A DNA stretch of 64,000 nucleotides from Poritiphilus flavus (GCF_009901585.1 NZ_WXYO01000002.1:92769-156768), one strand, 5' to 3'. Shown: positions 14,884 through 32,671, numbered from the stretch's first letter. Numbers and translations are program-made. The notes: generated by a model not told the origin, from the sequence alone.

Positions 14884-15270
14884 CTCATAACAGCATTTGT
14901 TATTAAGGCAGATTTTCTAATTCAGCTGGTCAATGAGCGAATATTTAGATAGTTTTTTTCACGAATTCCCGAATGATGTTTCCTTCATAAATAACTCTGG
15001 TTCAGCGGCATAAGAGTTTACACATATTTTTGCTACAACGGTTTTTAAACTTGAGGAAAGCTTCAAAAAAGCAAAAACTATCCTCATGAAATACGGGTAA
15101 CATGAGAAGTTGGTCTAAAAAGTTGTCCTAAATCCCCTGCTGAGATCGTCAATTTTATGAGATGAAATATTGACTGGCCAAGGGGTTGGTCCATAAAGCA
15201 GCCCCATTAAAGAAAATCTGAGTGGGCATAAATTCATTTATAGATTAACAGATATAAAATAACTAAACCA

Positions 15271-15750
15271 ATGAAAACCATTGTCACCCTTTTACTGATG
15301 GCCGTTGTGGGCATTCAAATCTGCAATTCACAAAGTTTTTTTGAAAAAGTCTCAAATCTAAAATGGAAAGGTGAGGGAGAACTTATGGGAAGTAAGGCAT
15401 CCTTTAAAATGGACTGGAAGCCTATTCTGGACGGTAAATTCTACCAACTAACATTTCAAAATCAACGCGAAGAATCCAAAGAATATGTTTTCAAGGCCAG
15501 GGGCATTTATCGAGTAGGGGAAAGCAATAATGTTAGCGGTAGCTGGTTCGATTCAAGAGGATATTCATTTCCTCTTAAAGGTGAAGTTTCAGAAGACGCA
15601 CTTATGGTGATCTGGGGTTCACCGGAACTTGAGCAAGGAAAAACCATTTACACGATTAAAGACGGTTCCACCATTTTTGTGGAGGACTATGTTTTAAAAG
15701 ATGGGGAATTCATAAAATTTGGAAACGCCGAGTACAAACCAAACAATTAG
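15271..15750 (+). CDS. Hypothetical secreted protein
   Basis: Signal peptide. No recognised domain. Confidence 0.4.
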   Translation: MKTIVTLLLMAVVGIQICNSQSFFEKVSNLKWKGEGELMGSKASFKMDWKPILDGKFYQLTFQNQREESKEYVFKARGIYRVGESNNVSGSWFDSRGYSFPLKGEVSEDALMVIWGSPELEQGKTIYTIKDGSTIFVEDYVLKDGEFIKFGNAEYKPNN

Positions 15751-15777
15751 GTTCAGGCATCGCAATGGGGAAGTGGT

Positions 15778-15840
15778 ATACTGCTGGCTTTTTACAGTGA
15801 GAAGCCTTAAATTAAAGCGGGGAGGGGAGTAGAACTCCCC
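15778..15840. repeat. Dispersed copy of the ~62-bp double-hairpin module
   Basis: actgctggctttttacagtgagaagccttaaattaaagcggggaggggagtagaactcccc, near-identical to the unit's 3' end. Confidence 0.75.
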
Positions 15841-15945
15841 AAACTATGTAGGCAAAAACAGTTTTGATGGTCTAACTAAGCCAAGCCCTGCTCAGCAGAC
15901 GAAGAATTACCTTTTCACCATAGGATCAATCCACCAAAAACCTAT

Positions 15946-16881: not shown

Positions 16882-16884
16882 TGA

Positions 16885-18276
16885 TTATCTTTCTATTTGG
16901 TTATGCAATCCAATATGCCGGTAAATCTTAAGGGAGTTGTCTGGCTGTCGCTTCCAAAGTCGGATTCCCTTGCCTTCATTGGTGCCCGAATTTTCTTTGA
17001 AGCGCCAATCCACTTCAAATAGGGAATACTCCAATATGTGATCTTCCAAATAAACATATTCGTAAGGCAGGACCTTAATATGGTCAATTTCTACGTCCCC
17101 TTTGTGGTAATCCTTTAAGTATGGTTTCAGAACCTCAAGGCCTACTTTGGCTTTATCAGCAAAAGGGTAGAATATGGCATCTTCAGCATACAGATCAATT
17201 CGCATTTGAGCATCCCAATTTTTAATTGCTTTTTCCCCATAGGCGGCATAAGCTCTTAGCTCAAGATTGCCGTTATTCGCAGGAACAATACCTTTGTCTA
17301 CTACCACATATTCCTCCTGTGTTAATTCCCGGTGGTATCCCTGGGCATAAGCATAAAGCTTATAACCCCCTGTGGTTTCCTTCCAGATGCACCAAAACTT
17401 TCCATTTTGTTGAAAAGGCTCTTTTAGCCGGGGACTTTTGATCTTTTGGGAGAATAAACCTATCTCTATCTTGTAGCCCGGTAGCTCAATGACCTCTTCT
17501 ATCAAGGGGTTTAACGCCACAATCTTATATTCATCAAACACTTTTTCGTAGTAAGCCAATATCTGCTCATGCCCCTTCAGTGTCTTTTGATATTCCAGCA
17601 TAAATATCCCATTAGGATGGATGTAGTTTCTTAAATCGTCTTCATTTTGGTTTTTAAGGGCATCAAAAAAAACCTTGCGTTCCCTGTCCGTATTGAACCC
17701 TTGCCTTATTCTGTTGAAAGTACCTTCATAAAAAAGCCCGGTAGGTCTGTGGTTATTATCATATTGTATTGACCGCATATTATAGCTGTCTTTTGAGATC
17801 CAGCTGTAATGGTATATGCGATACGTATTGTTGGGTTCACCCTCGAACCGTATCTTAAGGGACAAATCCCCTTTTTCATCAAAAGTTCCCTGACCCACTC
17901 CCGCTCTTATGGTTCCAAAACTGGACAAATGAGAGACCTCCTTTGTATTGGGGTTGTACGACCAAAATATATGACCGTTTGGTTCCGGTCCATCAATGAT
18001 CGATAGTAAACTGTTTTGCGTGTTCAGCTGCCTGGAAACAGTATGGTGGTTAGCTATTCTGATGGTATCTGTCTTATCTCCCCAATTTTGAATCCACCTA
18101 TCGTCTTTTAGCGTCCACTCTCCCATAAATCTTGTGAAAGGGTTTTTAGAGATTTCTATGGAATCCATGAGTTGCTCGTGGGAAGGCTTTCCATTTAGTT
18201 CAAATTCTATAGCCGTTCTTTGCGCCAAAGCAACACCAAAGGACCAAAAACAAAAGATGAGTGTTAATGTCTTCAT
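16885..18276 (-). CDS. Secreted NTF2-like-domain protein; paralog B. Start taken at 'MKTLTLIF'
   Basis: Paralogous blocks shared with 15946..16881. Confidence 0.45.
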   Translation of the reverse strand: MKTLTLIFCFWSFGVALAQRTAIEFELNGKPSHEQLMDSIEISKNPFTRFMGEWTLKDDRWIQNWGDKTDTIRIANHHTVSRQLNTQNSLLSIIDGPEPNGHIFWSYNPNTKEVSHLSSFGTIRAGVGQGTFDEKGDLSLKIRFEGEPNNTYRIYHYSWISKDSYNMRSIQYDNNHRPTGLFYEGTFNRIRQGFNTDRERKVFFDALKNQNEDDLRNYIHPNGIFMLEYQKTLKGHEQILAYYEKVFDEYKIVALNPLIEEVIELPGYKIEIGLFSQKIKSPRLKEPFQQNGKFWCIWKETTGGYKLYAYAQGYHRELTQEEYVVVDKGIVPANNGNLELRAYAAYGEKAIKNWDAQMRIDLYAEDAIFYPFADKAKVGLEVLKPYLKDYHKGDVEIDHIKVLPYEYVYLEDHILEYSLFEVDWRFKENSGTNEGKGIRLWKRQPDNSLKIYRHIGLHNQIER

Positions 18277-18755
18277 TCTTGATAGGGTTGAATGATTTCG
18301 TGAATAGTGGCCCAACCTGTCGGACTTTCGTCTGAACGCTCAAGTATCAATAACGTCCGTCCCCTGAAAACGAAGGGTTCATCCCCGTTTTTTGGAATTA
18401 GTCTTAAGGCAAAAAGCATCTGTTTAATTACCAGGTCGTTTTTATAGATGAATTTTTCCGTGACTTTTTCATCCAGGAATTCCAGATCAAAGCTTTCCAT
18501 AGTAGACTTTAAGCCGCTTAATACTTCTTCCCGACCTATTTGCAGATTGTTATACGCCAAAGCCTTGGTCACCTCAGGATGGTGGTATAATTTGATGGTC
18601 TCTAAATCTGCATTTTTAAATGCTTCCCTTACCGCCATCCCGGTCTCCGTAATTTGTCTTGAAACCTCTTCTTCTGTTGGCTTGTTGCTGGAACAACAGT
18701 AGAGTAAAAGTGTCAAGGGAATCGTTAAGATTGTTACATTCCGCCAGTATAATTT
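18273..18755 (-). CDS. Small secreted/lipoprotein NTF2-like (DUF4440-like) protein; paralog C. Start taken at 'MKLYWRN'
   Basis: Lipobox 'LYCCSS'. '…FVFRGRTLLILERSDESPTGWATIHE'. Confidence 0.45.
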   Translation of the reverse strand, partial: KLYWRNVTILTIPLTLLLYCCSSNKPTEEEVSRQITETGMAVREAFKNADLETIKLYHHPEVTKALAYNNLQIGREEVLSGLKSTMESFDLEFLDEKVTEKFIYKNDLVIKQMLFALRLIPKNGDEPFVFRGRTLLILERSDESPTGWATIHEIIQPYQE

Positions 18756-18966
18756 CATAGGCTTTTGTTTATTTTGACCAAAGGAAATGAAGTTCCGGGC
18801 CATGCGGAAATGTTATTGCCAAATGGAGCTGCCTGGTTGACAAGTTGAATGGTTTTCCGGATATCAGACAAAAAAAGCGGGTTTAAGATCTCGTATTGTA
18901 TTTCGTCATTTATTCGGTACACCTTGTCAATTCGATAGGCCCCAACTGTCAGGTCTCACCCGTTTT

Positions 18967-20112
18967 TTGACTAATTTTGTTCGAATGGTTCTCTCTAAAA
19001 CATTGAAATCCATAATCGCATTTATTAGCAGGTACAAATTGTATCATCTGGCATTTTGGTCTTTGTACCACTACTTCTGGTGGGCACTCATGAGTGGTAG
19101 CGCGGTTGAGGCGGTGCAGAATATCTTCTTTTCAGCATATTCTACAAAGTTTATTTTCTATGTGGTAATGCAGGCATTAGGGGTTTATTTTAATCTGTAT
19201 TTCTTAATCCCGCGGTTTTTACAGAAAGGGAACTATTTGGTTTACATCCCGATGTTATTACTGACAGTGCTTACTACTTCAGCCGGGATTATTGGGGGTT
19301 ATTATGTCAATGCTGCCGTGGTGGGCCTCCCTTTTGAAGAGCTTTTTAAGATAGCACCTACAGAGTTCTTTACTTTATTCAAAAGCAACGCGCTACCATC
19401 AACCCTGGCAAGTATGACCCTGGCCATGAGTATTAAACTGACCAAGAACTGGATGGCCTCTGAAAAGCGCAGAAATACCATTGAAAAGGAAAAACTGCAA
19501 ACCGAACTTAAATTTTTGCGTTCCCAGTTCAATCCTCATTTCTTGTTCAATACCATTAATTCCATTTTTGTGCTGATACATAAGGACCAGGATAAAGCCT
19601 CAAACTCTTTGGCAAAATTCTCTGAATTGCTTCGATATCAATTGTATCAATGCAACGAACCTTTTATTCCTCTGGAACAGGAATTGGATTATCTAGTCAA
19701 TTTTATTGAACTGGAAAAGCTAAGGCAAGAGTCGGAGCTTTTGGAATTAAATGTTGATCTGGACAAAACAACTTCCCTCACTTTGGAAATCGCCCCTTTT
19801 CTAATGATACCTTTTGTGGAAAACGCTTTTAAGCATGTTTCGTATCATAAAAACGCTAAAAATTGGATTGATATCCAGTTACGACTAGAACAAAGCAACT
19901 TACAGCTAATGGTCTCTAATAGTAGGAATCCCCTTGTAGTTGAAAAGGAAAATGGAGTTAATGGGATAGGTTTGGCCAATGTAAAGCGCAGGCTGGAGTT
20001 ACTGTATCCGAACGCCCATAAGCTGGAGATCATTAAGGATAATCTGCAACACGCCATAAAACTAGATCTTAAACTACAACAGCTTGAAGTTGTAAAATCT
20101 CAAATAGCCTGA
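18967..20112 (+). CDS. LytS-type sensor histidine kinase (His_kinase PF06580 + HATPase_c) with membrane N-terminus
   Basis: 'FLRSQFNPHFLFNTINSI' is diagnostic of LytS/YehU-family kinases. Confidence 0.8.
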   Translation: MTNFVRMVLSKTLKSIIAFISRYKLYHLAFWSLYHYFWWALMSGSAVEAVQNIFFSAYSTKFIFYVVMQALGVYFNLYFLIPRFLQKGNYLVYIPMLLLTVLTTSAGIIGGYYVNAAVVGLPFEELFKIAPTEFFTLFKSNALPSTLASMTLAMSIKLTKNWMASEKRRNTIEKEKLQTELKFLRSQFNPHFLFNTINSIFVLIHKDQDKASNSLAKFSELLRYQLYQCNEPFIPLEQELDYLVNFIELEKLRQESELLELNVDLDKTTSLTLEIAPFLMIPFVENAFKHVSYHKNAKNWIDIQLRLEQSNLQLMVSNSRNPLVVEKENGVNGIGLANVKRRLELLYPNAHKLEIIKDNLQHAIKLDLKLQQLEVVKSQIA

Positions 20113-20116
20113 CAGA

Positions 20117-20839
20117 ATGATACGATGTGCTGTAATAGATGATGAACCCCTGGCTCGGGAATGTTTGGTGAATTACATCCAAAAAATTGATTTTTTGGAT
20201 TTGGTAGGTGAAGGGCCAGACCCTACTGCCTTGTTGAATATTGCAAATAGGCAAACGCTGGACCTTGTATTCCTCGATATACAAATGCCGATCATGACCG
20301 GAATTGAGTATTTAAAGTCAACCAAAGTGAGGCCAATGGTAATCCTGACCACTGCGTATCCCAGCTATGCACTTCAAGGATTTGAATTGGACGTCCTGGA
20401 TTATATGGTCAAGCCCATAACCATGGAACGATTCCTAAAAGGTGCCAACAAGGCGAAGGACTATCTTTTGCTTGCTAAGGGTGACAATAATGCCAATAAG
20501 AGCGGCGCTCCTCCGGAATATTTTTTTGTGAAGTGCGAAAGTGTATATGAAAAGATATTCTTTGATGAAGTGGAATATGTGCAGGCACTGCAAAATTATG
20601 TGGTCATATACACTTCAGGCAGCAAGTACGTAACGCTTATGTCTATGAAGCGCATAGAGTCGCTTTTAGGAGCTTCGCAATTTATTAGGGTCCACAAGTC
20701 CTATCTGGTTGCATTGGACAAAATACAAAGTGTAGAGAATACGCGATTGCATTTAACTTCAGCGACCATTCCCCTAAGTCGAAATTATAAGATTAATGTC
20801 TTTGAACACGTTCTGAACAAATCGTTTTTAAAGAAGTAG
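20117..20839 (+). CDS. LytR/AlgR-family response regulator (REC + LytTR DNA-binding domain)
   Basis: REC 'CAVIDDEPLA…LVFLDIQMP', C-terminal LytTR. Confidence 0.85.
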   Translation: MIRCAVIDDEPLARECLVNYIQKIDFLDLVGEGPDPTALLNIANRQTLDLVFLDIQMPIMTGIEYLKSTKVRPMVILTTAYPSYALQGFELDVLDYMVKPITMERFLKGANKAKDYLLLAKGDNNANKSGAPPEYFFVKCESVYEKIFFDEVEYVQALQNYVVIYTSGSKYVTLMSMKRIESLLGASQFIRVHKSYLVALDKIQSVENTRLHLTSATIPLSRNYKINVFEHVLNKSFLKK

Positions 20840-21020
20840 ATCTCTTACACCTGGGATGAATTCCAGGTGAAACAAATGCTGTATTCATGTATAAATTTTG
20901 TGGTTGATCTGATCTTTACCTGATTGTCCGCTATAAGACCAGTTTCTATTGGCTCATCTAAACCGGTTTACCTTTGGCCAATTCTTGGGCTGAATACCTA
21001 AAGCAGTTTACTAGCACTAA

Positions 21021-21083
21021 AACTGTTGGTTTTTTACAGAGAGGAGGCCTAAATTGATATTGAGGAGGGGATTGGTAATCCCC
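21021..21083. repeat. Dispersed copy of the ~62-bp double-hairpin module
   Basis: actgttggttttttacagagaggaggcctaaattgatattgaggaggggattggtaatcccc. Confidence 0.7.
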
Positions 21084-21512
21084 ATTTTAAAAGCAAAACC
21101 AGAACTTGGCCAATTACTTCACTTTGTTGGCATCCAAGGTATTTTTGTATTTCTGGGACCGTACCGACTCCGTGTGGTTAAACACCTTTTTTCAGGACTA
21201 TTGACAGACCTTAACGATCTGGATAATCTCAGATGGACTTATTATTTGGGCTCCATATCCGGCACTATTATAGGATTCCTTTTGCATAGATTTAAATACT
21301 TCTGGAAGATCCAATCCATGGGCATAAGCGGGTAATTTTGTCAGAAATTATTAGTGTAACAGGTTGATGACTTTGCATGCATGAATCAGGAATGTGTCGC
21401 TTTCAGCATTTGAACTGCCACAATCGCATAGGCGGTATTGCAGGATCTGCCAAAGGAATTGTACAACTGTTTCTGCCTCATGAAAATCACCTTAAATAAA
21501 AGAATATTTGCA

Positions 21513-22475
21513 ATGAAAAATGAAAACACTCCTCAAGATCTACCATGGTGTGAATATCCAAAGGCTTCTGAATTGGAACGACATGGTTTGATGAAGTTGC
21601 CGAACAAACTAAGGACCATCTGCTGGAGCAAAGTGAAAAAGTATCGAACCAATACCTATGCCATAAAAATGTTGGGTTGTCTAAATGATCCCCAAATATT
21701 GGAAATGGCCAGAATGGTAGCTGATTCTTTTGGAAAGAACGAACCTATGAATCGGCATATCAATATGCCAAAACAAATACCGGATGAACTTAAAAACTAT
21801 CTTCACAGAGACCCATTTGGCAGCGCATTTTTTGGAGAGTGGTCCTCGGAAAATTTGATGTATTGGTTCATACGAATGTTTATACTTACCGATCCGGCAG
21901 ATCCGATTGACAAGGTAGAGATTAACAGGGACCTAAAGAAAATGTCGCTTACCATGCTTGGTCCTGATTCCAAAATTTTGGGCGGAGCATATAATATTAC
22001 AGTATGCGAAGAGGAAGACGGTTTCAGGGAGTTTGATCCAATTCTCAGAGCTGTATTTACGGTAGATAAACCTATTTTCGATTTTATATTTTCTCAAGAG
22101 CATCTGGCTATTCAGCTGCTAAAAAGTAAGTATTTTGAATTTAAGAAGGCATTAGAGAATGGAGAGGTAGCATCTCATTTTATGGTTGCAAAGTGTCCGC
22201 AATTACCTAAAAAGCATGCCTTCGAGTTAGTGGCTGCTTCTGCAGAAGTATTAAAAGTTCAGGGATTCAAATATATAATGGTTTGCGCTACAAATCAATG
22301 GACCGGTGCGGCTTGCGAGGCACTAAACGGAACAAGAGTACATTTTGCTCCTTTTAGGACAGAAAGACTAATTGCAGATGCTTTTAGCGCTTCTGAATCA
22401 GAGCCCTATAGCAGTGATGGCTTTATATCAGATAAAGATAGCGGAGCAATGCTTTATGTATTGAACCTTAACTAA
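21513..22475 (+). CDS. Hypothetical cytoplasmic protein. Start taken at 'MKNENT'
   Basis: Long ORF with no confident domain. C-terminal half is weakly GNAT-like. Confidence 0.45.
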   Translation: MKNENTPQDLPWCEYPKASELERHGLMKLPNKLRTICWSKVKKYRTNTYAIKMLGCLNDPQILEMARMVADSFGKNEPMNRHINMPKQIPDELKNYLHRDPFGSAFFGEWSSENLMYWFIRMFILTDPADPIDKVEINRDLKKMSLTMLGPDSKILGGAYNITVCEEEDGFREFDPILRAVFTVDKPIFDFIFSQEHLAIQLLKSKYFEFKKALENGEVASHFMVAKCPQLPKKHAFELVAASAEVLKVQGFKYIMVCATNQWTGAACEALNGTRVHFAPFRTERLIADAFSASESEPYSSDGFISDKDSGAMLYVLNLN

Positions 22476-22593
22476 TTCTGTCTACTTAAAACTTTAGGAT
22501 ATCAATAACAAGTAAGAATCTATCATTTGATAATTTTGCAAGCGTTGTACTTATTATACTTCAGAAAACTGCAGCATTAATTTCCTTTGAAAA

Positions 22594-23541
22594 ATGGACC
22601 AGTCAACGATGTTGAATTCTAGCAAATACGAGAGATTTATCCTATTATTCGCGATTTACATTTTAAGCCATGCTTGTAGCAAGGATAACACGCCCGCGCA
22701 GATAAGTGACCCCGACCCAATTGATCCCGACTTGGAATTGGTACAGCTACCTATAGTGGTTCATGTAATTCACAATGGAGAGGAAATTGGGGCCGGGCCT
22801 AATCTTTCAACCGAACGCATCCTAAGGCAAATAGCAATTATAAATGAGGACTTTCGTCGTAAAGAAGGTACCAAAGGGTACAATGAGCATCCGGATGGTG
22901 CGGACTCAAGGGTGGAATTTGTGCTTGCCAAAAAAAATCCGGATTCGGAGTCTTTTAATGGAATTAATAGGATAGATGCTTCTACAATAGATGTAGAAGA
23001 TCTGGGTTATAGTCCCAATCATTATTCGCAATACGCGTATTGGGATCCCAACCAATATATAAACGTTTGGACTACCCCTTTACCGGCCGAAACATCCTGT
23101 GTGGTCCTTGGATTGGCTACCGGGCCACTTACCGATCTTCCGGGGACTGAATTACTTGCCATTCCGCAGGAAGGAGATGCAGAAGGCATTTTAATCAACT
23201 GGTCACATTTTGGTGAATCAGTAATAAATTGTCATGCGCGATACGGGCGAACCCTAACCCATGAGATGGGCCACTATTTGGGACTCTTACATCCCTGGGG
23301 TGGAAACGACTGTGAATCCAATGACTTCTGTGATGATACCCCTCCAGTGGACAAAGCGGTTTTTGGACGAACTGCCTTTGAGGGCTGTTCGGGAGAATCT
23401 ATTATGATAGCTAACTATATGAACTATAGCGATGATGAGGTAATGAATATTTTTACGAAGGATCAGGTTGATAGAATTCGTTACGTCCTCAAAAACCACC
23501 CCGGCAGGAACAATTTGATAACTAGTCCGGCGCTGCAGTAA
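22594..23541 (+). CDS. Zinc metalloprotease, metzincin M43 (cytophagalysin/pappalysin-like) lipoprotein
   Basis: 'HEMGHYLGLLHPWGG' = HExxHxxGxxH. Lipobox 'SHACS'. Confidence 0.75.
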   Translation: MDQSTMLNSSKYERFILLFAIYILSHACSKDNTPAQISDPDPIDPDLELVQLPIVVHVIHNGEEIGAGPNLSTERILRQIAIINEDFRRKEGTKGYNEHPDGADSRVEFVLAKKNPDSESFNGINRIDASTIDVEDLGYSPNHYSQYAYWDPNQYINVWTTPLPAETSCVVLGLATGPLTDLPGTELLAIPQEGDAEGILINWSHFGESVINCHARYGRTLTHEMGHYLGLLHPWGGNDCESNDFCDDTPPVDKAVFGRTAFEGCSGESIMIANYMNYSDDEVMNIFTKDQVDRIRYVLKNHPGRNNLITSPALQ

Positions 23542-23542
23542 A

Positions 23543-24019
23543 ATGAAACCTGAGAACTTAATTATTCTGACTTGCCCGGATTGGGAAAGCGTACCAATTT
23601 CACTTTTGTTGTTAGCAGATCCTGATGAGAAAAGGCTTGAAGCCTATATAAAAACGGGAAGTTGTTATATTGCCAAAATAGAGGACACCATAATTGGAGT
23701 ATTGGTGTTAAAAGAAATCAATCCAACTACTCTGGAAATTAAGAACATTGCCATAGATGAACCTTTTCAGGGCTACGGCTTTGGTAGTCATCTACTGAAT
23801 TTTGCATCGGAAGTTGCCAGAGATCAGGGGTATAAGTCGCTGATAATCGCAACGGGGAATTCCAGCATAGGACAGCTAAAACTATATCAGCGAATCGGTT
23901 TTGAAATATTTGATATCGAGATGAACTACTTTACTCTCGAATACCAAGCGCCGATTTATGAAAACGGAATTCAGTGCAAGCACAAGATTTTTCTACGGAA
24001 AGATTTGAACAACAACTAA
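23543..24019 (+). CDS. GNAT-family N-acetyltransferase
   Basis: 'IAIDEPFQGYGFGSHLL' acetyl-CoA-binding motif. Confidence 0.75.
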   Translation: MKPENLIILTCPDWESVPISLLLLADPDEKRLEAYIKTGSCYIAKIEDTIIGVLVLKEINPTTLEIKNIAIDEPFQGYGFGSHLLNFASEVARDQGYKSLIIATGNSSIGQLKLYQRIGFEIFDIEMNYFTLEYQAPIYENGIQCKHKIFLRKDLNNN

Positions 24020-24048
24020 AGTAAGCTCCTATACGATCTGCCCCCTTA

Positions 24049-25254
24049 TCATTTTTTTGACTGCAGTCTTTTTCTGAATTCCGTCGGGTTCATATTGAAT
24101 TTACGTTTGAAAGCAATTGAAAAATTATTAGAATGCTTGTAGCCTACTTTTTCGGCAATAGAGGCGATAGACTCCTCAGGGTCTGTTAATAGGCGGGAGG
24201 CATTGGAAAGTCTTATATCAGTCAGAAAATGAATAACCGGCGTCTCAAAAAGCTCTGAGAAAGCGGTTTTGATCTTGTACTGGTTTATTCCAAAAGACCT
24301 TGCTAAAGAGCTGATAGTTATCTCTTCAGGATAATTGGTTTCAAGGAAATCACGAATCTGGTATATCTTAAAGAGATCTTCTACGCGTAATTCCTCTAAC
24401 TTTGAATTTACTGTGGCTCTTTCACCGGTTACAAACGTTTGTATGGCCAGTAACTCTTTTTTATACTCGCCAAACCAAACAAGGTGATCATTCCCGCTGC
24501 TTAGTATTAATTGAGAGTTCGGAATTTTATCATGTATATATTGGCTATGTTGAGATTCTATTAATCTATCCCCTTCTCTATGGATAATTAAAGTAGGAGC
24601 TTGAACCTTTCTTAATATAGAAGTCACATCTATTTCAATGTTCATCTCATACAACTTTCTGGCAGTGGTTGGGCTTGCACTGCGGCGCAGAAATTGAGAC
24701 CATTGTTTTTGAACACCTTTCTTGTGTTGTACACTTGGAGCGAAGTATTTAAGCCCTACAGGTTCTCCCCAATGCTCAAATATATAATCTATAGATTTTA
24801 AATGTTGCCTCTTTGTTAAGCCGTATGGATAGCTATCGGACTTTAACCACTTTGCAAAGCTACCAATTAAGATGAGTTTGGAGACCATACCAGGGTGTTG
24901 CACAGCAAAGCGTAACGCCAGGGCACCTCCTTCGGAAAGGCCTATAAAATTTGCCTTTTTGACACCTATCTGCGACAAAATAATTTCAAGATCGTTTGCA
25001 CGTTCTTGAATGCCAGGGGGTTCATTCTCATTAATGTTATCAGACAGGCCCGTTCCTCTTTTATCAAAAATGACCAGTTTAGAAAAGGATGCAATATACC
25101 TTAACCATGCTGCTGCCTCAGGAATATCCCAAACCGCTTCAATGTTAGAAATCCATCCGGGGATCAATATCAAAAAATCACCTTTGTCGCCAATAATTTG
25201 ATATGCGAGATTACCCTCTTTTGATCGGGCATATAAAGTGTTGGGAATATTCAT
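24049..25254 (-). CDS. Alpha/beta-hydrolase fused to a C-terminal AraC-type HTH. Start taken at 'MNIPNT'
   Basis: 'GLSEGG' nucleophile elbow with HGW box upstream. AraC HTH 'SSLARSFGINQYKIKTAFSELF…FRKR' at the C-terminus. Confidence 0.7.
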   Translation of the reverse strand: MNIPNTLYARSKEGNLAYQIIGDKGDFLILIPGWISNIEAVWDIPEAAAWLRYIASFSKLVIFDKRGTGLSDNINENEPPGIQERANDLEIILSQIGVKKANFIGLSEGGALALRFAVQHPGMVSKLILIGSFAKWLKSDSYPYGLTKRQHLKSIDYIFEHWGEPVGLKYFAPSVQHKKGVQKQWSQFLRRSASPTTARKLYEMNIEIDVTSILRKVQAPTLIIHREGDRLIESQHSQYIHDKIPNSQLILSSGNDHLVWFGEYKKELLAIQTFVTGERATVNSKLEELRVEDLFKIYQIRDFLETNYPEEITISSLARSFGINQYKIKTAFSELFETPVIHFLTDIRLSNASRLLTDPEESIASIAEKVGYKHSNNFSIAFKRKFNMNPTEFRKRLQSKK

Positions 25255-25355
25255 TAATGGCAAGTTAAAGAAAGACAACCTTCTTTGCGCATAGATTAAA
25301 ATACTTTTAAGATATCCTGTCTCCATGCTTATGCCGGTACATTTGGGCAAAAAAC

Positions 25356-25988
25356 ATGTGCTCAAATAACAATTTCTCATTGAGACTTATCAATTCAAGA
25401 ATATTCCGTGCATTAAACGGATATATGCATTATAAATACAAGAATAGAAAAACAGCGCTTTTTTCGGATCTGCCGGAACGCTTACTTGAAATTGGCCCTG
25501 GTGCAGGGGCTAACATGCGCTACTATAAACCGGGCACTGAGGTAATAGCTGTTGAACCGAACCCACATATGCATAGATCATTAATTGATCAATCTGAAAG
25601 ATACGGACTGCAACTTCGAATCGTCAAGGGTTCTGCTGAGGTTCTAAACCTTATGGACAATAGCATTGACGCTGTTGTCAGCACCTTAACACTGTGCACT
25701 ATACCAGACGAAAGGCAGGCGCTTTCCGAGATTAAACGTGTATTGAAACCTGGAGGTAAGTTCTACTTTTTAGAGCACGTTGCAGCCAATAAAGGATCCC
25801 TGTTAAGAAGAATTCAAATAGTGATCCACCGTCCCTGGAAGTGGTTTTTTGATGGCTGCCATACACATAAGAACTTAAGGAGACGGATTTGCGAGACTGG
25901 CTTTTCAAATGTTCAAATAGAAAATTTTAAGCTTTATTCTCCCTTTATTCCAATCACTCCACAGATTTCTGGTATTGCACGCAAATAG
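25356..25988 (+). CDS. Class I SAM-dependent methyltransferase
   Basis: Motif I 'LEIGPGAGAN', post-I 'VIAVEPN', 'LKPGGKFYFLEH'. Confidence 0.7.
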   Translation: MCSNNNFSLRLINSRIFRALNGYMHYKYKNRKTALFSDLPERLLEIGPGAGANMRYYKPGTEVIAVEPNPHMHRSLIDQSERYGLQLRIVKGSAEVLNLMDNSIDAVVSTLTLCTIPDERQALSEIKRVLKPGGKFYFLEHVAANKGSLLRRIQIVIHRPWKWFFDGCHTHKNLRRRICETGFSNVQIENFKLYSPFIPITPQISGIARK

Positions 25989-26036
25989 ATCTGAGGAAAC
26001 AAACTGGTATGATATCGCAATTCAAAAATTCACATA

Positions 26037-26636
26037 ATGTATTATATAAAAACTATAATCTTCCTGATGCTAAGCTTATTTTGGTATAGTTCTTTCGCTC
26101 AAAGAAACAATTGCTCCATAATAGATCAAGAAGAATGTTTCATCTACCCGGACCAGTTCAAGCCCGGCTTCGGGGAAGCTCCCGAGAGCCTAATTAAAGC
26201 AGACCGTAAATGGTCAGTATTGTCCAACCGTATTTCATTTATCAGTCAAAATGGAGTCAAACTCAATTATTTAGAAATTGAAGATAAAATGATTGCACCG
26301 GAAATCTTGTTATTATATAAGAATCATGGAGGTGGTCTGTCATTTAAGCAAGTTGTAAGTGAAATGCAGAGACTGAACAAAGAAACCAAAATAATAGCTG
26401 TAAATCTTGATGAAACCAATTCAAAGGAATCTCAGATTGAAGCTAAAACCCAAGTAAGTACAGCATCAACAATCGAGTTGGTCAAGGCAATTGTTGAGTT
26501 AATCTTACATAAAAACATTGTGAACTGCCTTATAGTGCCCTATGCTGATGCCAAAGTGGTTGCTGCTGAAATTGAGCGTCGGCGCAAGACAGGTGGGAAA
26601 GAATGGTTTATGAATACCGATTCTTACCTTCACTAG
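26037..26636 (+). CDS. Hypothetical secreted protein
   Basis: Signal peptide. No domain recognised. Confidence 0.4.
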   Translation: MYYIKTIIFLMLSLFWYSSFAQRNNCSIIDQEECFIYPDQFKPGFGEAPESLIKADRKWSVLSNRISFISQNGVKLNYLEIEDKMIAPEILLLYKNHGGGLSFKQVVSEMQRLNKETKIIAVNLDETNSKESQIEAKTQVSTASTIELVKAIVELILHKNIVNCLIVPYADAKVVAAEIERRRKTGGKEWFMNTDSYLH

Positions 26637-26700
26637 GCCAACTTAAGCTATGTGATCTAAAAGTTAATCGAAACCAAGATTTAAATGCATAAAACCAAAA

Positions 26701-26724
26701 CCCTGTATGAGAATACAGGGTTTA
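26701..26724 (+). terminator. Possible terminator hairpin
   Basis: ccctgtatgagaatacaggg then ttta. Weak T-tract. Confidence 0.35.
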
Positions 26725-26726
26725 CG

Positions 26727-27127
26727 CTTTAAGTGACCTCCACAGGCTTGCCTGCCATAGCCTTAGCGACGACAGGATTGTTACCTTACCCTTCAAACCC
26801 AATTGCTATTGCAATGGGAAAGCTGTAAACTGCTGATTTTTTGCAGTGAGAAGCTTTAAATTATGTTTAGGGAGGGGAGTAGAACTCCCCGATTTTCTGC
26901 TTTAAGTGACCTCCACAGGCTTGCCTGCCATAGCCTTGGCGACGGCAGGATTGTTACCTTACCCTTCAAACCCAATTGCTATTGCAATGGGAAAGCTGTA
27001 AACTGCTGGTTTTTTGCAGTGAGAAGCTTTAAATTATGTTTAGGGAGGGGAGTAGAACTCCCCAATTTTTCTGCTTGATGTGACCTCCACAGGCTTGCCT
27101 GCCATAGCCTTGGCGACGGCAGGATTA
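26727..27127. repeat. Tandem array of ~2.3 copies of a 175-bp hairpin-rich unit, each beginning with a copy of the tRNA-Arg 3' end
   Basis: Copies start at 26733, 26906 and 27080 (gtgacctccacagg). Units are >95% identical. Confidence 0.9.
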
Positions 27128-27547
27128 CTCGCCGAACCTACCTTGAGTGGTGGTCGAAAGGCTCGTGATCCTTTGAACCCACTCTTGTAAATGCAATCAG
27201 CGGCCATATTTACAAAACCTTGGTTTGAGAATATCATTACTGGGACATTAGGGTATTAGGGATTGCAAACGACCGAACTAGCTGATCTGCGTCTTTAATG
27301 CGGCACAGTGTGAGTGGGTCCTTTCCCTGCTGGTATATCTTGGTCGATCTTGGTTGGATGCCCATTTTCTCTACACCTGTGAAGGCAAACAAGAACAGTC
27401 CAATCATCTGCATCTACGAAAATGTCAAATCTATCCCGACCTTATTTACTTTTGCATTCCAGCGGCTTGATACCATTTTGAATTGGCCTCGACGTCTTCC
27501 ACAGCAATGATTGGATAGGTTTTGGTCATACTAAATTGTTTTATGAT

Positions 27548-27988
27548 TTAGTCGGTAATCAGCTGTTCTATTTTAATAAAGCCAGCTCTTGCCGCATCTG
27601 CGTGTACTTGCATTGCTTTTTCGTCGTAAAGATTTTCGTGCGTGTATGTTAGTTCAGTTTTTCCATTGACTTCCTTAAACTCGACCGTTAGGATTGTCTC
27701 GTTCGCCCAGTTTTCGATCTTCTCATTCTTGGCCCATTGGAACGTCCCAACGAGTTTATATGGTGGATCAACCTCGGTATACATTCCTGAGAGTGGATAC
27801 TTGATTCCATCATCACCGAGCATCGTGAGTCGATAGGTGCCACCTTTAGAAACATTCAATTCATGAATTTCTGCACCGTCTTTGCTGGATCCAAACCATT
27901 TTGCCATTTTTGCTGGATCGGTCCAGGTTGCATAAACCTTTTCTGGTGATGCATTAAATGTGTGTTTTAAAATAAGTGTTGTATTCAT
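27548..27988 (-). CDS. SRPBCC-superfamily protein (Aha1/activator-of-Hsp90-ATPase-like domain)
   Basis: 'EKVYATWTDPAKMAKWFG…' AHSA1 pattern. 146 aa. Confidence 0.65.
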   Translation of the reverse strand: MNTTLILKHTFNASPEKVYATWTDPAKMAKWFGSSKDGAEIHELNVSKGGTYRLTMLGDDGIKYPLSGMYTEVDPPYKLVGTFQWAKNEKIENWANETILTVEFKEVNGKTELTYTHENLYDEKAMQVHADAARAGFIKIEQLITD

Positions 27989-28794
27989 ATTCCATGTATT
28001 AGTTTTGAAACATCAGGTTCAAGTGTCGGCACCTAGAAACTACACTCACATCCCTTTTAGCTTTAGTAAAACAGACCGGATTCAAAACATTTAAGAAATA
28101 AATATTTGCCTTAATATTGCTTTCTCCAGCTCATTCGAAGAGAAAAACAGAGGTGTGGTCTTGCCAAAGATCTAGTGCATAATGTGTATCTGACATATAT
28201 TCCGGATACTCATTGGATGGCTCATATAACCAAGTTATGAGATCAATTCCATCATAATAGAATCAAATAATTCACTCATTGCCTGGCCGAAGGAACTCTT
28301 AATATCGAGATGAAAATTTCGTCAAATGAAACTTAACCTCCGTATTGATTTTTCTGCCGGTCCCTGCCGTCCGCTTTGAGCCGAAAACAGACTATAAATC
28401 TTAATTTAAAAAAACAATGACATTAGTCACGTAAACGGCCATTTTACAAGACATGAATTCAAAAACAAACTTTCTTTTGTATAGGTTTCCTAGCTCTGGT
28501 CTTTTTTAGTGATTTTGTTAATTAACCTTTTATCGCAGACTCTACTTGCATTTGTAATTCGGTTAACGCTGTTGACTAATAAAAAGTGACCCTGCCTATG
28601 CCGGCAGGCTCTACAGATTTCCTTACTTTGTTCGGTTTTCCTTCGAACTCCTTCCTAAAAATAAAATCCCTGCTTGGAATTTGGAGTTTGTGATTTGAAT
28701 TTCAAGGATTATATGCGGTGATCCTAAATAAGTTCCGTAGTCTAAATGCAAAGCTGCAAATCGCGGATTTACCTGCTTTCAGGGAGCTTTTCAT

Positions 28795-28996
28795 TCTTAA
28801 GTGACCTCCACAGGCTTGCCTGCCATAGCCTTGGCGACGGCAGGATTGTTACTTTACCCTTCAAACCCAATTGCTATTGCAATGGGAAAGCTGTAAACTG
28901 CTGGTTTTTTGGAGTGAGAAGCTTTAAATTATATTTAGGGAGGGGAGTAAAACTCCCCGATTTTCTGCTTGATGTGACCTCCACAGAATTATTCCA
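28795..28996. repeat. Fourth copy of the 175-bp unit, flanked by tRNA 3'-end core copies at 28801 and 28984
   Basis: ~93% identical to the units at 26727-27075. Confidence 0.9.
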
Positions 28997-29143
28997 TGAT
29001 CCTGAATAAAATCGCTGCTGCAAATAGAAAGTCCAATTACTTGCGTAATTATTTTTCATTTTACTCCGAACCTCTGAAGCATAGCTCCAGGTTCTTCGTA
29101 AAACAAAAAATCCACCACGGTGGTGATGGACTTTCTGCTTGAT

Positions 29144-29160
29144 GTGACCTCCACAGGATT
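29144..29160. repeat. Sixth direct copy of the tRNA-Arg 3' end (gtgacctccacaggatt), 164 bp from the gene itself
   Basis: Exact 17-bp match to tRNA positions 29308-29324. Confidence 0.85.
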
Positions 29161-29242
29161 ACCTCTCTTCGTTTGGTTTTCCTTTGTGTTCCATGTTGAG
29201 AATCAAAAAATCAATGCTTCGCATTGCAAAATCCTCTCTTAC

Positions 29243-29277
29243 AAAACAAAAAAGCGAGCTTTATGTTTTGCTCGCTT
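29243..29277 (-). terminator. Rho-independent terminator downstream of tRNA-Arg
   Basis: Minus strand: agcgagc-aaaacataa-agctcgct followed by TTTTTTGTTTT. Confidence 0.7.
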
Positions 29278-29308
29278 CGGTTTGTTGAATCATTTTTTGA
29301 TTCATCTG

Positions 29309-29382
29309 TGACCTCCACAGGATTCAAACCTGTAACCTCTTGAGCCGTAATCAAGTGCTCTATTCAGTTGAGCTAGGAGGCC
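29309..29382 (-). tRNA. tRNA-Arg (anticodon ACG). CCA not encoded
   Basis: Manual cloverleaf: acceptor GGCCTCC/GGAGGTC, D-arm GCTC…GAGC, anticodon stem CTTGA/TCAAG with loop TTACGGC, T-arm ACAGG-TTTGAAT-CCTGT. Confidence 0.85.
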
Positions 29383-29834
29383 TTTGTTATTAATGTTCTT
29401 AACGTACCCTTTTATGCCTTTGCTAAGGGAGGGCAAATATATTTCTTTTTGTACTTAAGGCAAAATAACCACGCACCAAATATTGGTAGCCATGCCATAG
29501 CCGAAGTGAATGCCTCGAACTAATTTCCGAGGGATTTGGTCGTTACGTAATAGCGCCAGCCGATGATGGCCAACTGAAATTTTGAGGCCTTAGACAAATC
29601 CAAACCCCGCTTTGAATAGGAGGGCAAAAAGAGCCTGTTGGCCCTGGCTAAAAAAGTAAATAAAGCCTTTTTCATCGGTCTGCTTATGTGGTAAAGGTAA
29701 GCAATGTCCCGGAATAGGCATTTCCCTAACCAAAGCGATACCTTCCCTCAATGCTCTTGTACTCTGGCTAACCACCCATTTCAGATACGGCCAATTCGCC
29801 CTAGTTTAAGATCAAATTCAAAAGATATGTCATT

Positions 29835-31136
29835 ATGAAAACAAAACTTCATTTACTTCTTATTCCGGCTGTGATCTTACTTGGAGGAGCCCTGCGCTTC
29901 TTCCCGGGTTCTCCGGAAAAGGCAAGAACAATAAAGCCTGAAAAAGGTTGTGTCTTCATGACCGTTATGGGGGAGCAGTCTTCCCTGGGCTTTGAACGCT
30001 ACAAATCTGATGAAAATATGGAACTGTCAGTCAGAGATGGACTTCAATGGTTGTCAAAAGCCCAGCTTCCCAACGGTGGTTACGGGGCAGGCAGCCACAG
30101 CGCCCAGCATATTAGGGACCCCCACGCGGTAAAAGCAGATCCAGCAACAACCGCCATGGTGGGTATGGCTTTCCTGAGAAGTGGTACTACACTTCAAAAA
30201 GGGATACACGCCAACCACCTGAAAAAAGCATTGAATTACCTGCTCGAAACCATAGAAAGCGCCGAGGCTGGATACCCCTATATCACCAAAGTCAGAAATA
30301 CCCAGATACAGACAAAACTAGGTGAGAATATAGACGCGGTGCTGGCTTCTCAATTCCTTTCCAGTATTTTGGACAGAGATCTGGAAGGTATTGATAGAAA
30401 ACGAGTTTCGCGATGTTTAGACATTTGTATCTCCAGGATCGAAGCAGGGACTGATGAGTCCGGTAAACAGAGAGGCGCAGGCTGGGCAGGAGTATTGCAA
30501 AGTGGCCTTGCCAGTAGTGCCCTGGAAGCCGCGCAGGCTGTCGGAGCTACGGTAGACGAGGTAATTGTAGAGCGGTCTAAATCCTATCAGAAAAGCAATT
30601 ATGATGAGAAAAACACCTCGGTTAAAACAACAGACGGCGCCGGGATAGTACTATATGCCGTAAGCGGAAGTGTAAGGGCTAGCGCCAAAGAAGCAAGAAA
30701 GGTCAAAAGTGATATGAAAAAAGCCCGTAAAGAAGGTAGAATTCCAACTGCGGCGGAAGTTAGCGTAGAGGTTCTGGAAGATATTGGCTATTCCAAAGAG
30801 GACGCTATGAAATACAATACCTCTTACGAAATTTACGAGTCTGCCAAGCTTATGGCCCAGGATGAAAAGGTTATGGACGGATTTGGAAACAATGGCGGAG
30901 AAGAATTCCTGAGCTATCTTCAAACAGGCGAGTCCTTGCTCGTTAGCAAAGACGAAAGCTGGAAGAAATGGTATGACGACATGAGCGGAAGGATTCTGAA
31001 GATCCAGAATTCAGACGGTAGCTGGAGCGGGCATCATTGTATCACTAGTCCCGTTTTCTGTACAGCCACCAGCCTCATGTTACTTACGGTTGAGGAAGAC
31101 ATTGATTTTTTACAGAAGATAGGAGAAGAAGGTTAG
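29835..31136 (+). CDS. Secreted prenyltransferase/squalene-oxidase-repeat (alpha/alpha-toroid) protein
   Basis: 'LQWLSKAQLPNGGYG' and 'NSDGSWSG' QW-type repeats. Signal peptide. Confidence 0.5.
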   Translation: MKTKLHLLLIPAVILLGGALRFFPGSPEKARTIKPEKGCVFMTVMGEQSSLGFERYKSDENMELSVRDGLQWLSKAQLPNGGYGAGSHSAQHIRDPHAVKADPATTAMVGMAFLRSGTTLQKGIHANHLKKALNYLLETIESAEAGYPYITKVRNTQIQTKLGENIDAVLASQFLSSILDRDLEGIDRKRVSRCLDICISRIEAGTDESGKQRGAGWAGVLQSGLASSALEAAQAVGATVDEVIVERSKSYQKSNYDEKNTSVKTTDGAGIVLYAVSGSVRASAKEARKVKSDMKKARKEGRIPTAAEVSVEVLEDIGYSKEDAMKYNTSYEIYESAKLMAQDEKVMDGFGNNGGEEFLSYLQTGESLLVSKDESWKKWYDDMSGRILKIQNSDGSWSGHHCITSPVFCTATSLMLLTVEEDIDFLQKIGEEG

Positions 31137-31250
31137 TTGGCAGTCCTCCTTCGCTAAAGCTTCGGAGGATGAAATCAGTTGGCAGTAAACAGTTATAACT
31201 TTTAACACTTAAAACCTTTTAAACTTCAACTTAAACAGTCATCAAATTAA

Positions 31251-31281
31251 GCGCCCACCTCTATTAGGTGGGCGCTTTACT
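31251..31281. terminator. Bidirectional intrinsic terminator between convergent genes
   Basis: gcgcccacct-ctatt-aggtgggcgc, a 10-bp GC-rich stem, then TTT. Confidence 0.65.
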
Positions 31282-31330
31282 GATGGTCCATTAGCATCAA
31301 TAGTATTGGTAGTAGGGCATGGCTGTTTGA

Positions 31331-32671
31331 TTATTTGGATTTGGTTTTAGTCTCCATCATCTTTTTGGCCAGTTCAGCTCCTATCAGGGACTGCAGCAGA
31401 TTGCCGTCATTAGAGCTGGTTTTTCCGCCTTCTATATAGATGTCTGGCAATTTAAGCTCCTTGAGTTCCCTGGCTACACCGACCGAGGTTTTATATTCCC
31501 ATTCAGCGCGCTCCTGGGGTGTAAGACCAGCAGTTACCAATTTGGCATTCTGATAAGCTTCCGCATCCGCTGCAACCTTTTTGCTCTGAGCCTTGAACTT
31601 CTCCACCTCAAACTGCTTCTTCTCCTTTACCAGGTTAAATTCAGCAACTTTGGCTTCGGTCTCAGCCGCGATGGTTTTTTGGATCTGCTCCTTTTCCAGT
31701 CGGGCACGCTCGGCGGCTTTTTCAGCCTCACCACGAGCCTTTTCTTTCTGAGCGCGATAAAACTCTCTTTCGGCCTGCTGCTTTTCAAGTTGAGTTTGTG
31801 CAACTTCCTCTTTTTGCAACTGTAGCCGCTTGTCAAAAGTCTCTTCCCAATCAATTTCGGTAACCACTGCCTGAACTACGGTTAGTCCGTACGCTCTAAG
31901 GGAATTTCCCTCTTCGCGAATTGGCATGCCGTTCTCCCTTTTGATACGGAAGCGCTTCTGCTTGGTTTCTTTGTTGATCACGGTGCGGACAGTGGCGCTA
32001 TCGCCAATGATATCCTTGCGCTCGTTCTCAACATACTCCTCGAGTACGTACATTCCGTTTTCGAGCTGATCTTTAAAATACCTGTCAAAATCTGAGGCCT
32101 GGCCAGAGATATAATCCTGGGCGTCCATAAGTTTACAGGTGTTCTTTATAGACTGATCAATGTTGGGAATGATACGTGAACGAATCATATTTTGCTCTGT
32201 TTTGTTTCGATCTGCCACGGAAAGAAATTGTGCTTCGTCTTCCGTATTGATGCTGATCACTACAGAAGTAGCGATTCTGGCTTTTACAGCGTCACTGAAT
32301 GCCCAGTACTTGGCTGCATCCACGTTGGCGTATTCGCTCTGCTCTCCCAACTCGCCATCCCTGCCGGGTATGACATACTTAATGGGTAGTTCAAATTGAA
32401 TGGGTATAAGCCTTCCCCACATCTTGGTGTTGATCCCCTGCCGGAAAACAGCTTTCTGGCCACCCCAGGGGTACTGGACCGCATAAGCGGTTCCGGGCTC
32501 TGCATAAAATAGTAGTCCGGTAAAAATACTCATTAGGATACCTAAGAGGATGATCTGAAGGCTCCTTCTCTGGTTAAACCAATTGAGCAGACTAATATTC
32601 TTAAATATAGGTTTGGCGATAAGGGTGATTACGCCAATAATTATGATAAATATTCCTAAGAAAGTTAACAT
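31331..32671 (-). CDS. SPFH/flotillin-like (YqiK-type) membrane protein with a long coiled-coil
   Basis: N-terminal TM helices, then an E/K/A-rich coiled coil and flotillin-like C-terminus 'IEGGKTSSNDGNLLQSLIGAEL'. Confidence 0.5.
   Translation of the reverse strand: MLTFLGIFIIIIGVITLIAKPIFKNISLLNWFNQRRSLQIILLGILMSIFTGLLFYAEPGTAYAVQYPWGGQKAVFRQGINTKMWGRLIPIQFELPIKYVIPGRDGELGEQSEYANVDAAKYWAFSDAVKARIATSVVISINTEDEAQFLSVADRNKTEQNMIRSRIIPNIDQSIKNTCKLMDAQDYISGQASDFDRYFKDQLENGMYVLEEYVENERKDIIGDSATVRTVINKETKQKRFRIKRENGMPIREEGNSLRAYGLTVVQAVVTEIDWEETFDKRLQLQKEEVAQTQLEKQQAEREFYRAQKEKARGEAEKAAERARLEKEQIQKTIAAETEAKVAEFNLVKEKKQFEVEKFKAQSKKVAADAEAYQNAKLVTAGLTPQERAEWEYKTSVGVARELKELKLPDIYIEGGKTSSNDGNLLQSLIGAELAKKMMETKTKSK

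Follow-up and report, generated by a model that had tools for sequence, protein, structure and literature searches.

The tRNA-Arg(ACG) gene and the copies of its 3' end

We analysed 64,000 nucleotides (nt) of Poritiphilus flavus DNA (GCF_009901585.1 NZ_WXYO01000002.1:92769-156768; hereafter the window, within which all positions are counted), and focus here on a tRNA-Arg(ACG) gene and on the array downstream of it, in which units bounded by copies of the last nucleotides of that gene follow one another. Throughout, the array is read along the tRNA strand, which is the minus strand of the window. The gene had already been called in a preliminary description of this DNA, and both ARAGORN and Rfam bore the call out (Table 1). 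The repeated core comprises the last 14–17 nt of the tRNA, (AAT)CCTGTGGAGGTCAC, which we interpret as a putative attB-type site. On the plus strand, the core GTGACCTCCACAGG is found exactly at 26733, 26906, 27080, 28801, 29144 and, within the gene, 29308, and with one mismatch at 28974 (28974-28987), giving seven matches with at most one mismatch where 0.13 were expected (none of 100 shuffles gave seven). Every copy has the orientation of the tRNA and lies downstream of it, and there are no further copies elsewhere in the 64-kb window outside the array. Identity to the tRNA extends over 17 nt (AATCCTGTGGAGGTCAC) in the copy at 29144-29160 and over 16 of 17 nt in the copy at 28974, with the remaining copies identical over 14 nt, beginning in the T-stem. 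The identity block reaches from the T-loop/T-stem to the last nucleotide of the gene, and an insertion at this site would accordingly restore the tRNA. Sublocation classes of integration in tRNA genes were reportedly set out by Williams in 2002, and the start of the identity block in the window (T-loop/T-stem) agrees with them.

An eighth, degenerate core was found at 28586-28619, reading GTGAC–CCTGCCTATGCCGGCAGG–CTCTACAGATT and interrupted by an 18-nt hairpin; it splits an interval of 1721 bp into 215 and 1506 bp. The preliminary description had most of this geometry right, as its six exact sites (the gene included), the 17-bp match at 29144 and the spacings of 173, 174, 1721 and 164 bp all stood, whereas the fifth copy, placed at 28984, begins at 28974, and the spacings given as 183 and 160 bp are really 173 and 170 bp. 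Machine alignment returned the seven copies it had counted, but the split eighth copy had been missed. The sequence ATCAAGCAGAAA, said to come after every copy, does so for only three of the six non-tRNA copies (27080, 28974 and 29144), with TTAAAGCAGAAA following at 26906, TTAAGAATGAAAAGC at 28801 and TTAAAGCGTAAACCC at 26733. Hairpins with a T-tract, claimed for the three copies nearest the tRNA, are present on the tRNA strand after the tRNA itself and after the 29144 copy, and also after the last copy at 26733, but not in the A units described below, where a GGGGAG..CTCCCC hairpin carries its T-tract on the opposite (plus) strand and a plus-strand terminator was called in each copy.

Anatomy of the array

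From the tRNA onwards, the array consists of cassettes C (164 bp), B (170 bp), A (173 bp) and K' (215 bp, with the split core), a 1.5-kb unit with an AHSA1/SRPBCC gene, two further copies of A (174 and 173 bp), and finally TTAAAGCGT with an intrinsic terminator (Table 1). All units are core-bounded and lack integration and transfer genes, and each ends in a right arm that runs into the core. Two right arms recur, a T-type (AGGAAGGAG..CGAAGGAA..AATC) and a G-type (TTTGTCAGGA..AATCC), and right arms end in CAGGA..N14-25..TCCTG, which is a T-arm-like hairpin with the acceptor 3' strand behind it.

For comparison, we assembled ~20 arrays (numbered with L below), comprising the loci around orthologues of a 433-amino-acid (aa) gene of the window together with metagenomic contigs that contain the core plus TTAAAGCG. 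Several parts of the array have counterparts among them. Cassette C has a homologue in the opening cassette of L003 (77% across 150 nt that take in the tRNA end), the right arm of K' matches the T-cassette arm of L002 at 93% over 28 nt, and the right arm of the 1.5-kb unit is orthologous to the end of the G cassette in L001 and L002, in which the sequence behind the last core is also orthologous to the trailer and terminator at 26690-26732. K-type cassettes are also present in L042 and L048, and the segment comprising K, TTTTTATTAGTCAAC and the AHSA1 gene is collinear with L048 (77–87% identity), where it lies behind tRNA–G. Homologues of the AHSA1 gene exist at 77–86% identity, one of them within another tRNA-Arg array. 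The preliminary description was correct that the tract has no integrase, but not that it has no cargo.

Beyond the core and at most 12 nt, cassettes A, B, C and K' have nothing in common, and homology among the units is confined to the three copies of A (96–97% mutual identity, two of them adjacent). Two consequences follow. First, since the A units are near-identical, the apparent ~170-bp period rests on three independent lengths (164, 170 and 173 bp), so that the periodicity of ~160–183 bp noted earlier holds for the short spacings (164–174 bp) with only that many independent observations behind it. Second, the lack of homology among the four cassette types argues for independent insertions and against a satellite. 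A tRNA-derived tandem satellite or a retroelement resembling a short interspersed nuclear element (SINE), which had been held equally compatible with the tract, would account for the regular-looking spacing and the common 14-nt tRNA-derived motif, but only the last 14–17 nt of the tRNA are copied while its 5' two-thirds are absent, the 64 kb hold neither other copies nor a reverse transcriptase, and the units are not homologous, all of which makes such an origin very improbable.

Internally, the cassettes are mosaics. Cassette B contains a long imperfect inverted repeat, in which AAGCAGAAAGTCC near its start pairs with GGACTTTCTATTTGC ~105 nt later, which makes the conserved ATCAAGCAGAAA one arm of a palindrome. 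It opens, like two of the three A copies, with ATCAAGCAG(G/A)AA and a terminator, while the third A copy (copy 1) opens with TTAAAGCAGAAA, in which the T and B trailers are combined. Cassette A is a chimera with a left half formed by an 82-nt terminator element that is also present outside the array, between the convergent genes 15271-15750 (plus) and 15946-16881 (minus); in L001, the orthologue of this outside copy is found only ~220 bp away from the array. The terminator scan gave no call where K' starts.

Small G+C-rich hairpins (CCTGCC..GGCAGG) were also seen at 28591-28608 and at ~26747-26776, 26920-26949, 27094-27123 and 28815-28844. They break cores at two positions, between AATCCTG and TGGAGG and between GAG and GTCAC, and L001, L002 and L048 have longer or duplicated hairpins at the same core positions.

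The AHSA1 gene is the only intact open reading frame (ORF) within the array. We had considered 27094-27547 as a frameshifted glyoxalase/VOC pseudogene, but dropped this because the stitched translation had no Pfam match at E <= 1. Small ORFs over the units (71, 87 and 63 aa, and others) were read as chance, as they cross unit boundaries; four small ORFs in 27040-27510 had no Pfam match, the ORFs over the repeats themselves lying outside that scan.

Table 1 Features of the tRNA-Arg(ACG) array and associated elements (positions within the 64-kb window)
Feature	Position	Strand	Description
Promoter-like site upstream of tRNA	29436..29463	-	TTGCCT..N16..TATATT then TATATTTG; consensus scan, putative function
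tRNA-Arg(ACG) gene	29308..29382	-	ARAGORN; Rfam RF00005, 58.4 bits
Cassette C, 164 bp	29144..29307	-	Trailer AGATGAATCA.., terminator GCGAGC..GCTCGC-T6, second terminator-like hairpin, T-type right arm, 17-nt core
Cassette B, 170 bp	28974..29143	-	ATCAAGCAGAAA, terminator TCACCACCGTGGTGG-T6, long internal inverted repeat, G-type right arm TTCAGGATCATGGAATAAT, core with one mismatch
Cassette A copy 3, 173 bp	28801..28973	-	ATCAAGCAGAAAATC, 82-nt terminator element, right arm with core region broken by CCTGCC..GGCAGG hairpin, core 28801-28814
Cassette K', 215 bp	28586..28800	-	Starts TTAAGAATGAAAAGC; T-type right arm AGGAAGGAGTTCGAAGGAA; degenerate core split by 18-nt hairpin
1.5-kb core-bounded unit	27080..28585	-	Starts TTTTTATTAGTCAAC; AHSA1/SRPBCC gene; G-type right arm; core 27080-27093
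AHSA1/SRPBCC-family gene, 146 aa	27548..27988	-	Pfam PF08327, E = 5.7e-23
Cassette A copy 2, 174 bp	26906..27079	-	Ends in core 26906-26919
Cassette A copy 1, 173 bp	26733..26905	-	Starts TTAAAGCAGAAA; ends in last core 26733-26746
Displaced T-type trailer TTAAAGCGT with intrinsic terminator	26690..26732	-	Terminator scan; hairpin 26698-26723 then TGGTTTT
Element outside the array, matching the left half of cassette A over 82 nt (84%)	15762..15842	-	Terminator region after gene 15271-15750

Lineage-specific expansion relative to sister genomes

The 433-aa gene (29835-31136), which is 100% identical to a Poritiphilus flavus protein, has orthologues of 90% identity on two contigs of sister metagenome-assembled genomes (MAGs), L001 and L002, whose tRNA-Arg sequence is identical to that of the window. 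Both contigs align on either side of the tract, with ~83% nucleotide identity in the flanks; in L001, 5067-8100 aligns with 29300-32348 of the window, 4845-4918 with 26691-26764, and 3939-4671 with 15115-15845. Between these flanks, the two contigs have the tRNA, a single cassette of 180–188 bp (G), a second core and then TTAAAGCG with its terminator, so that one cassette in each stands against seven or eight in the window, and neither has a counterpart of A or B. The break points fall at cores, and the tract is accordingly a variable region, expanded in this lineage from ~0.19 kb to 2.6 kb. A 22-mer spanning the junction (TTCTGCTTNANGTGACCTCCAC) had no match in the genome contig collection, which evidently does not include the P. 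flavus genome.

Integrases at the same tRNA in relatives

In three genera, a tyrosine integrase of 402 aa starts 226 nt after this tRNA, just past the trailer and terminator: in uncultured Flavobacteriaceae (L006/L035), in Maribacter algarum (L036) and in Flagellimonas sp. CMM7 (L037). The protein has Arm-DNA-bind_5, Phage_int_SAM_5 and Phage_integrase domains. Behind it, L035 and L037 have DUF6730 and a relaxase (L037 also a NikA-like protein), the gene complement of an NBU1-like integrative mobilizable element; the contig of L036 ends right after the integrase. A different tyrosine integrase of 457 aa, unrelated to the 402-aa type, is found in L047 (6200-7573) beside a homologue of RteC, a CTnDOT-type regulator (5220-6089); its end is ~190 bp from a core copy with three cassettes behind it. 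By their positions, two or more lineages of integrase thus appear to use the tRNA-Arg site. L005 has, as the third segment of its array, the left arm of a 402-aa-integrase element, complete with GGTGAGTA-like repeats but without the integrase, and this stump represents an intermediate stage of decay.

Probable tandem accretion at an integration hot-spot

Considered together, these observations make it likely, in our view, that the tract is a tandem accretion array at a tRNA-Arg integration hot-spot that was later remodelled locally. Mechanistically, (AAT)CCTGTGGAGGTCAC, from the T-loop to the discriminator, would be the attachment site in the chromosome that tyrosine-integrase elements of marine Flavobacteriaceae use, with each integration rebuilding the tRNA from a core copy borne by the element, adding a fresh trailer that usually has a terminator of its own, and shifting the earlier core and trailer downstream. 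The integrated units would then have decayed to a left arm (the trailer, mostly with terminator) plus a right arm and core, comparable to remnants known as cis-mobilizable elements (CIMEs), with one 1.5-kb unit retaining a cargo gene. Subsequent remodelling may have included the building of cassette A partly from the nearby terminator element and its amplification to three copies, the fusion of different arm types by deletion, and the insertion of small hairpins into cores. We infer that the cassettes of the window arrived by integrase action and are now inert or passively mobilised. That the T trailer and terminator behind the last core of the window directly follow the tRNA in relatives supports the hot-spot.

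Serial site-specific integration, one of the options raised in the preliminary description, gains support from the break points at cores and from the integrase-bearing elements at the same tRNA in relatives. The same description had judged a decayed hot-spot a poor fit; the expansion, the integrases of relatives and the cargo gene counter that judgement, although its unease about unit sizes was legitimate. Alignment to relatives, which it had proposed as a check, showed a variable region, with the integrase-bearing elements occurring at this tRNA in other genera and the sister MAGs having a single cassette.

Several points weigh against accretion. The 64-kb window contains no integrase, relaxase or recognisable fragment of either, as judged by Pfam searches on neighbouring ORFs, tblastn and tblastx: with 40 integrase family members as tblastn queries, nothing beyond noise emerged from the whole window (E >= 0.14), and tblastx of the L035 island gave only two weak matches, both outside the tract. 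Nor was a complete element with both att ends found, there being no second core (up to five mismatches) within 11 kb in L035 and L037. Four cassette types of 164–215 bp are hard to obtain from random, independent internal deletions, and T and G cassettes reappear in many genera with one and the same internal layout. In most arrays, the cores also carry the acceptor variant of the resident tRNA, which requires either concerted evolution or recent arrival. The small and similar sizes of the units are only partly explained.

Cassettes and their orders in other Flavobacteriaceae

Across the compared loci (L003, L005, L014, L015 and L039-L048), the arrays differ from one another, with cores of the form AATCCTG(Y)(S)GAGGTCAC. 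Depending on the lineage, this tRNA is directly followed by one of at least seven unrelated trailer types. In Croceivirga thetidis (L014) and the metagenomic contigs L039, L041, L043/L045 and L044, TTAAAGCG and its terminator are directly 3' of the tRNA and head a conserved T cassette of 169–174 bp that ends in a further core, and in L015 the immediate trailer is ATCAAGCAGGAAA plus terminator, the opening of cassette B. The cassette types T, G, C, B and K range from 114 to 217 bp and are mostly terminator-led. Their order varies: tRNA–G–T in L001, L002, L005 and L040, tRNA–T–G in L039 and L044, tRNA–C–G in L003, tRNA–G–K–AHSA1 in L048, island end–Cg–T–T in L047 and core–T–K in L042, whose contig begins inside the first core. 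L040 (G–T) and L039 (T–G) both have the exact tRNA sequence of the window. The unusual part of these findings is that the order of the small cassettes differs between related bacteria that share them.

Without any foreign integration, replication slippage or unequal recombination, acting across short repeats, could have copied the tRNA 3' end together with its trailer, followed by divergence, and such a purely local duplication would suit the near-identity of the A copies and the adjacency of two of them, the hybrid trailer TTAAAGCAGAAA that opens A copy 1, the tandem T duplicate of L047 and the neighbouring intergenic sequence incorporated into cassette A. Yet the interiors of B, C, K' and A are unrelated, the unrelated trailers described above sit behind the same tRNA in different lineages, relatives have integrase elements at exactly this junction, and slippage cannot make the first duplicate of the core with new sequence in between; as an explanation for the whole tract we consider local duplication unlikely.

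Beyond its terminator, the T cassette has two hairpins that are paired in 13 genomes with compensatory changes (alignment of L002, L005, L014 and L038-L047; columns 71-90 and 115-132): 91% of the cells are paired as against 26–46% for slid partners, eight pairs have changed on both sides, and none of 500 shuffles reached the covariation score. A 29-nt block, TTTGCATTTTCAGGAAGGAGCACAAAGGA, is nearly invariant across genera, an unusually strong conservation for non-coding DNA. The window has lost the part of the T cassette with the hairpins and this block.

A further reading is that the units are small structured RNA genes, co-transcribed with the tRNA or transcribed next to it, for which the tRNA-like 3' end would be a processing or stability signal. 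Three unit types of the window fold better than shuffled sequence (z = -3.1 for A, -5.5 for B and -3.8 for C), there is some covariation in the T cassette of relatives, and the right arms form a T-arm-like hairpin plus acceptor 3' strand. The excess folding energy, however, is explained by terminators and inverted repeats, and cassettes directly behind the tRNA begin with a terminator that would stop transcription from the tRNA promoter. Rfam matched only the tRNA, in gathering and permissive scans of the window (sub-threshold hits at E >= 1.9) and in a gathering scan of 14 related loci, and informal inspection by eye showed no TAnnTTTG-type promoter, the type used in Bacteroidetes, within the cassettes. 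In addition, the region is variable rather than a conserved structured RNA locus, which the preliminary description had named as an outcome that would speak against its reading, and A and B are missing from the two closest genomes. We therefore hold it to be quite improbable that the units are RNA genes.

Alternatively, the cassettes themselves may be mobile, as non-coding att-only elements of 114–217 bp that mostly open with a terminator. Resident tRNA-Arg-specific integrases would excise them and integrate them again in trans, singly or together with an adjacent integrase element (cis-mobilisation), so that the array would be integron-like but built on the 3' end of a tRNA. The recurrence of cassette types across genera with a conserved layout, precise core boundaries and different orders would be expected of such units, as would the clustering of sizes (169–174 bp for T in six loci; 164–174 bp for A, B, C and K). 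In all arrays in which a cassette lies directly behind the tRNA, whichever it is supplies a terminator there. The T cassette keeps its two extra covarying hairpins, which together with the conserved layout suggests that cassettes may be selected as units, and core copies mostly match the acceptor variant of the resident tRNA (TG, TC, CC or CG), with L005 and L042 mixed. Orders could, on the other hand, be permuted without any integrase by loss after tandem duplication, of which A–A in the window and T–T in L047 are examples, and arms in mixed combinations, with the C left arm joined to a T-type right arm in the window but to a G-type one in L003, fit fusion by deletion better. Furthermore, no excised form is known, the window has no known integrase, and a minicircle of ~170 bp would demand strong bending of the DNA. 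Mobility of the cassettes is accordingly a possibility that we regard as doubtful. Slightly more tentative still is the broader proposal that marine Flavobacteriaceae share a pool of att-only mini-cassettes, each with a right arm and a tRNA-Arg 3' end copy, which tRNA-Arg-specific tyrosine integrases would capture, excise and reshuffle in trans, as integron-like units or as the integrase counterpart of miniature inverted-repeat transposable elements (MITEs). Within such a pool, the conserved hairpin region of the T cassette might mimic an origin of transfer (oriT), so that cassettes travel with mobilizable elements.

Relation to known integrative systems

Taken as accretion, the array is a miniaturised form of the tandem accretion of decayed integrative elements. 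Integrative conjugative elements (ICEs) as well as integrative mobilizable elements (IMEs) have been described to integrate, decay to CIMEs that keep attL and attR, and accrete further elements (PMC5704250), with a precedent at tRNA genes in ICESt1 and its CIME of Streptococcus (Pavlovic 2004, Bellanger 2011, reviewed in PMC5704250). As in these systems, direct repeats of the target 3' end bound the units here, integrase and transfer genes are lost while attL and attR are kept, new elements lie beside old ones, and occupancy varies between strains. Described CIMEs, in contrast, are kilobases long and gene-bearing, whereas most units of the window are non-coding and of 164–215 bp, and the same mini-cassettes recur across genera.

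Closer to the present bacteria, an IntN1-like integrase of Riemerella anatipestifer was shown experimentally to integrate a 10-kb island at tRNA-Arg, with a 53-bp repeat that includes a terminator (PMC6764341). The integrases of relatives described above are likewise of the IntN1/IntDOT type, as in the Riemerella island and in NBU1/NBU2, with an arm-binding N-terminus, a tRNA 3' end as target and a short core. The common core of NBU1 and NBU2 is ~13-14 bp. A relaxase, as in NBU1 and NBU2, is also part of the elements of relatives (L035, L037). The window, having neither integrase nor relaxase, is unlike an NBU1-like IME in that it would be a footprint and not an element, and unlike in NBU1 and Riemerella, the integrases here come from other genera and their putative specificity for the core is deduced from position only.

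In Dehalococcoides, islands arranged in tandem are delimited by over a dozen 20-bp repeats of the ssrA 3' end (PMC3146451). These resemble the array in having many 3'-end direct repeats downstream of a tRNA-like gene and an insertion point in the T-loop, and some of those islands are without integration genes and have been proposed to be cis-mobilizable; they differ in using a serine recombinase (CcrB-like), in being gene-rich and on the kilobase scale, and in that no conserved mini-cassettes have been described for them. Integron arrays share with the present one the ordered short units that each end in a recombination site and vary in order and content between relatives, and some integron cassettes are also ORF-less. 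IntI, attI and Pc are absent here, however, the core is constant and tRNA-derived instead of a variable folded attC, and units begin with terminators and would not be expressed from a common promoter.

If tandem accretion is the right explanation, the locus is an ordinary tRNA hot-spot, yet an unusually clear fossil record of decay down to attachment arms, and tRNA-Arg(ACG) would be marked as a hot-spot across several genera of marine Flavobacteriaceae. Should cassettes of roughly 115–175 bp prove to persist and be mobile as units, they would be the smallest known hitchhikers on tyrosine integrases, they would extend the cis-mobilizable concept towards integron-like or MITE-like elements, and genetic tools for Flavobacteriaceae would gain natural attP substrates of compact size. 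The lesson for annotation is that repeated tRNA 3' ends should not be taken for pseudo-tRNAs or satellites when an integrase is missing.

Sequences adjoining the array

On the upstream side of the tRNA, the stretch TTG...TATATTTGC that coincides with the promoter-like site (Table 1) is also present in L039, L040 and L043. A sigma-70 promoter scan gave three sites versus 7.3 in shuffles, the sigma-70 consensus not being informative for Bacteroidota. In L044 (ERZ1066125 NODE-1871), a 22-nt duplicate of the tRNA 5' end lies ~330-420 nt upstream of tRNA-Arg, followed by a G+C-rich hairpin and a small GIY-YIG-like ORF (MFYVYVLYS..YVGLTNDIERRLVEHN), which suggests a different kind of insertion on the 5' side of the same tRNA.

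Beyond the far end of the array, a block of ~10.85 kb (15846-26690) is absent from L001, where 174 bp join the same flanks. It encodes two DUF4440 proteins, a His-kinase/LytTR pair, an M43 peptidase, a GNAT protein, an AraC-hydrolase fusion, a methyltransferase and a 199-aa ORF for which no identical protein is on record. We considered this block as an island integrated at a core, but rejected the idea since no core copy marks its far boundary; the block is probably an insertion or deletion of its own that adjoins the array.

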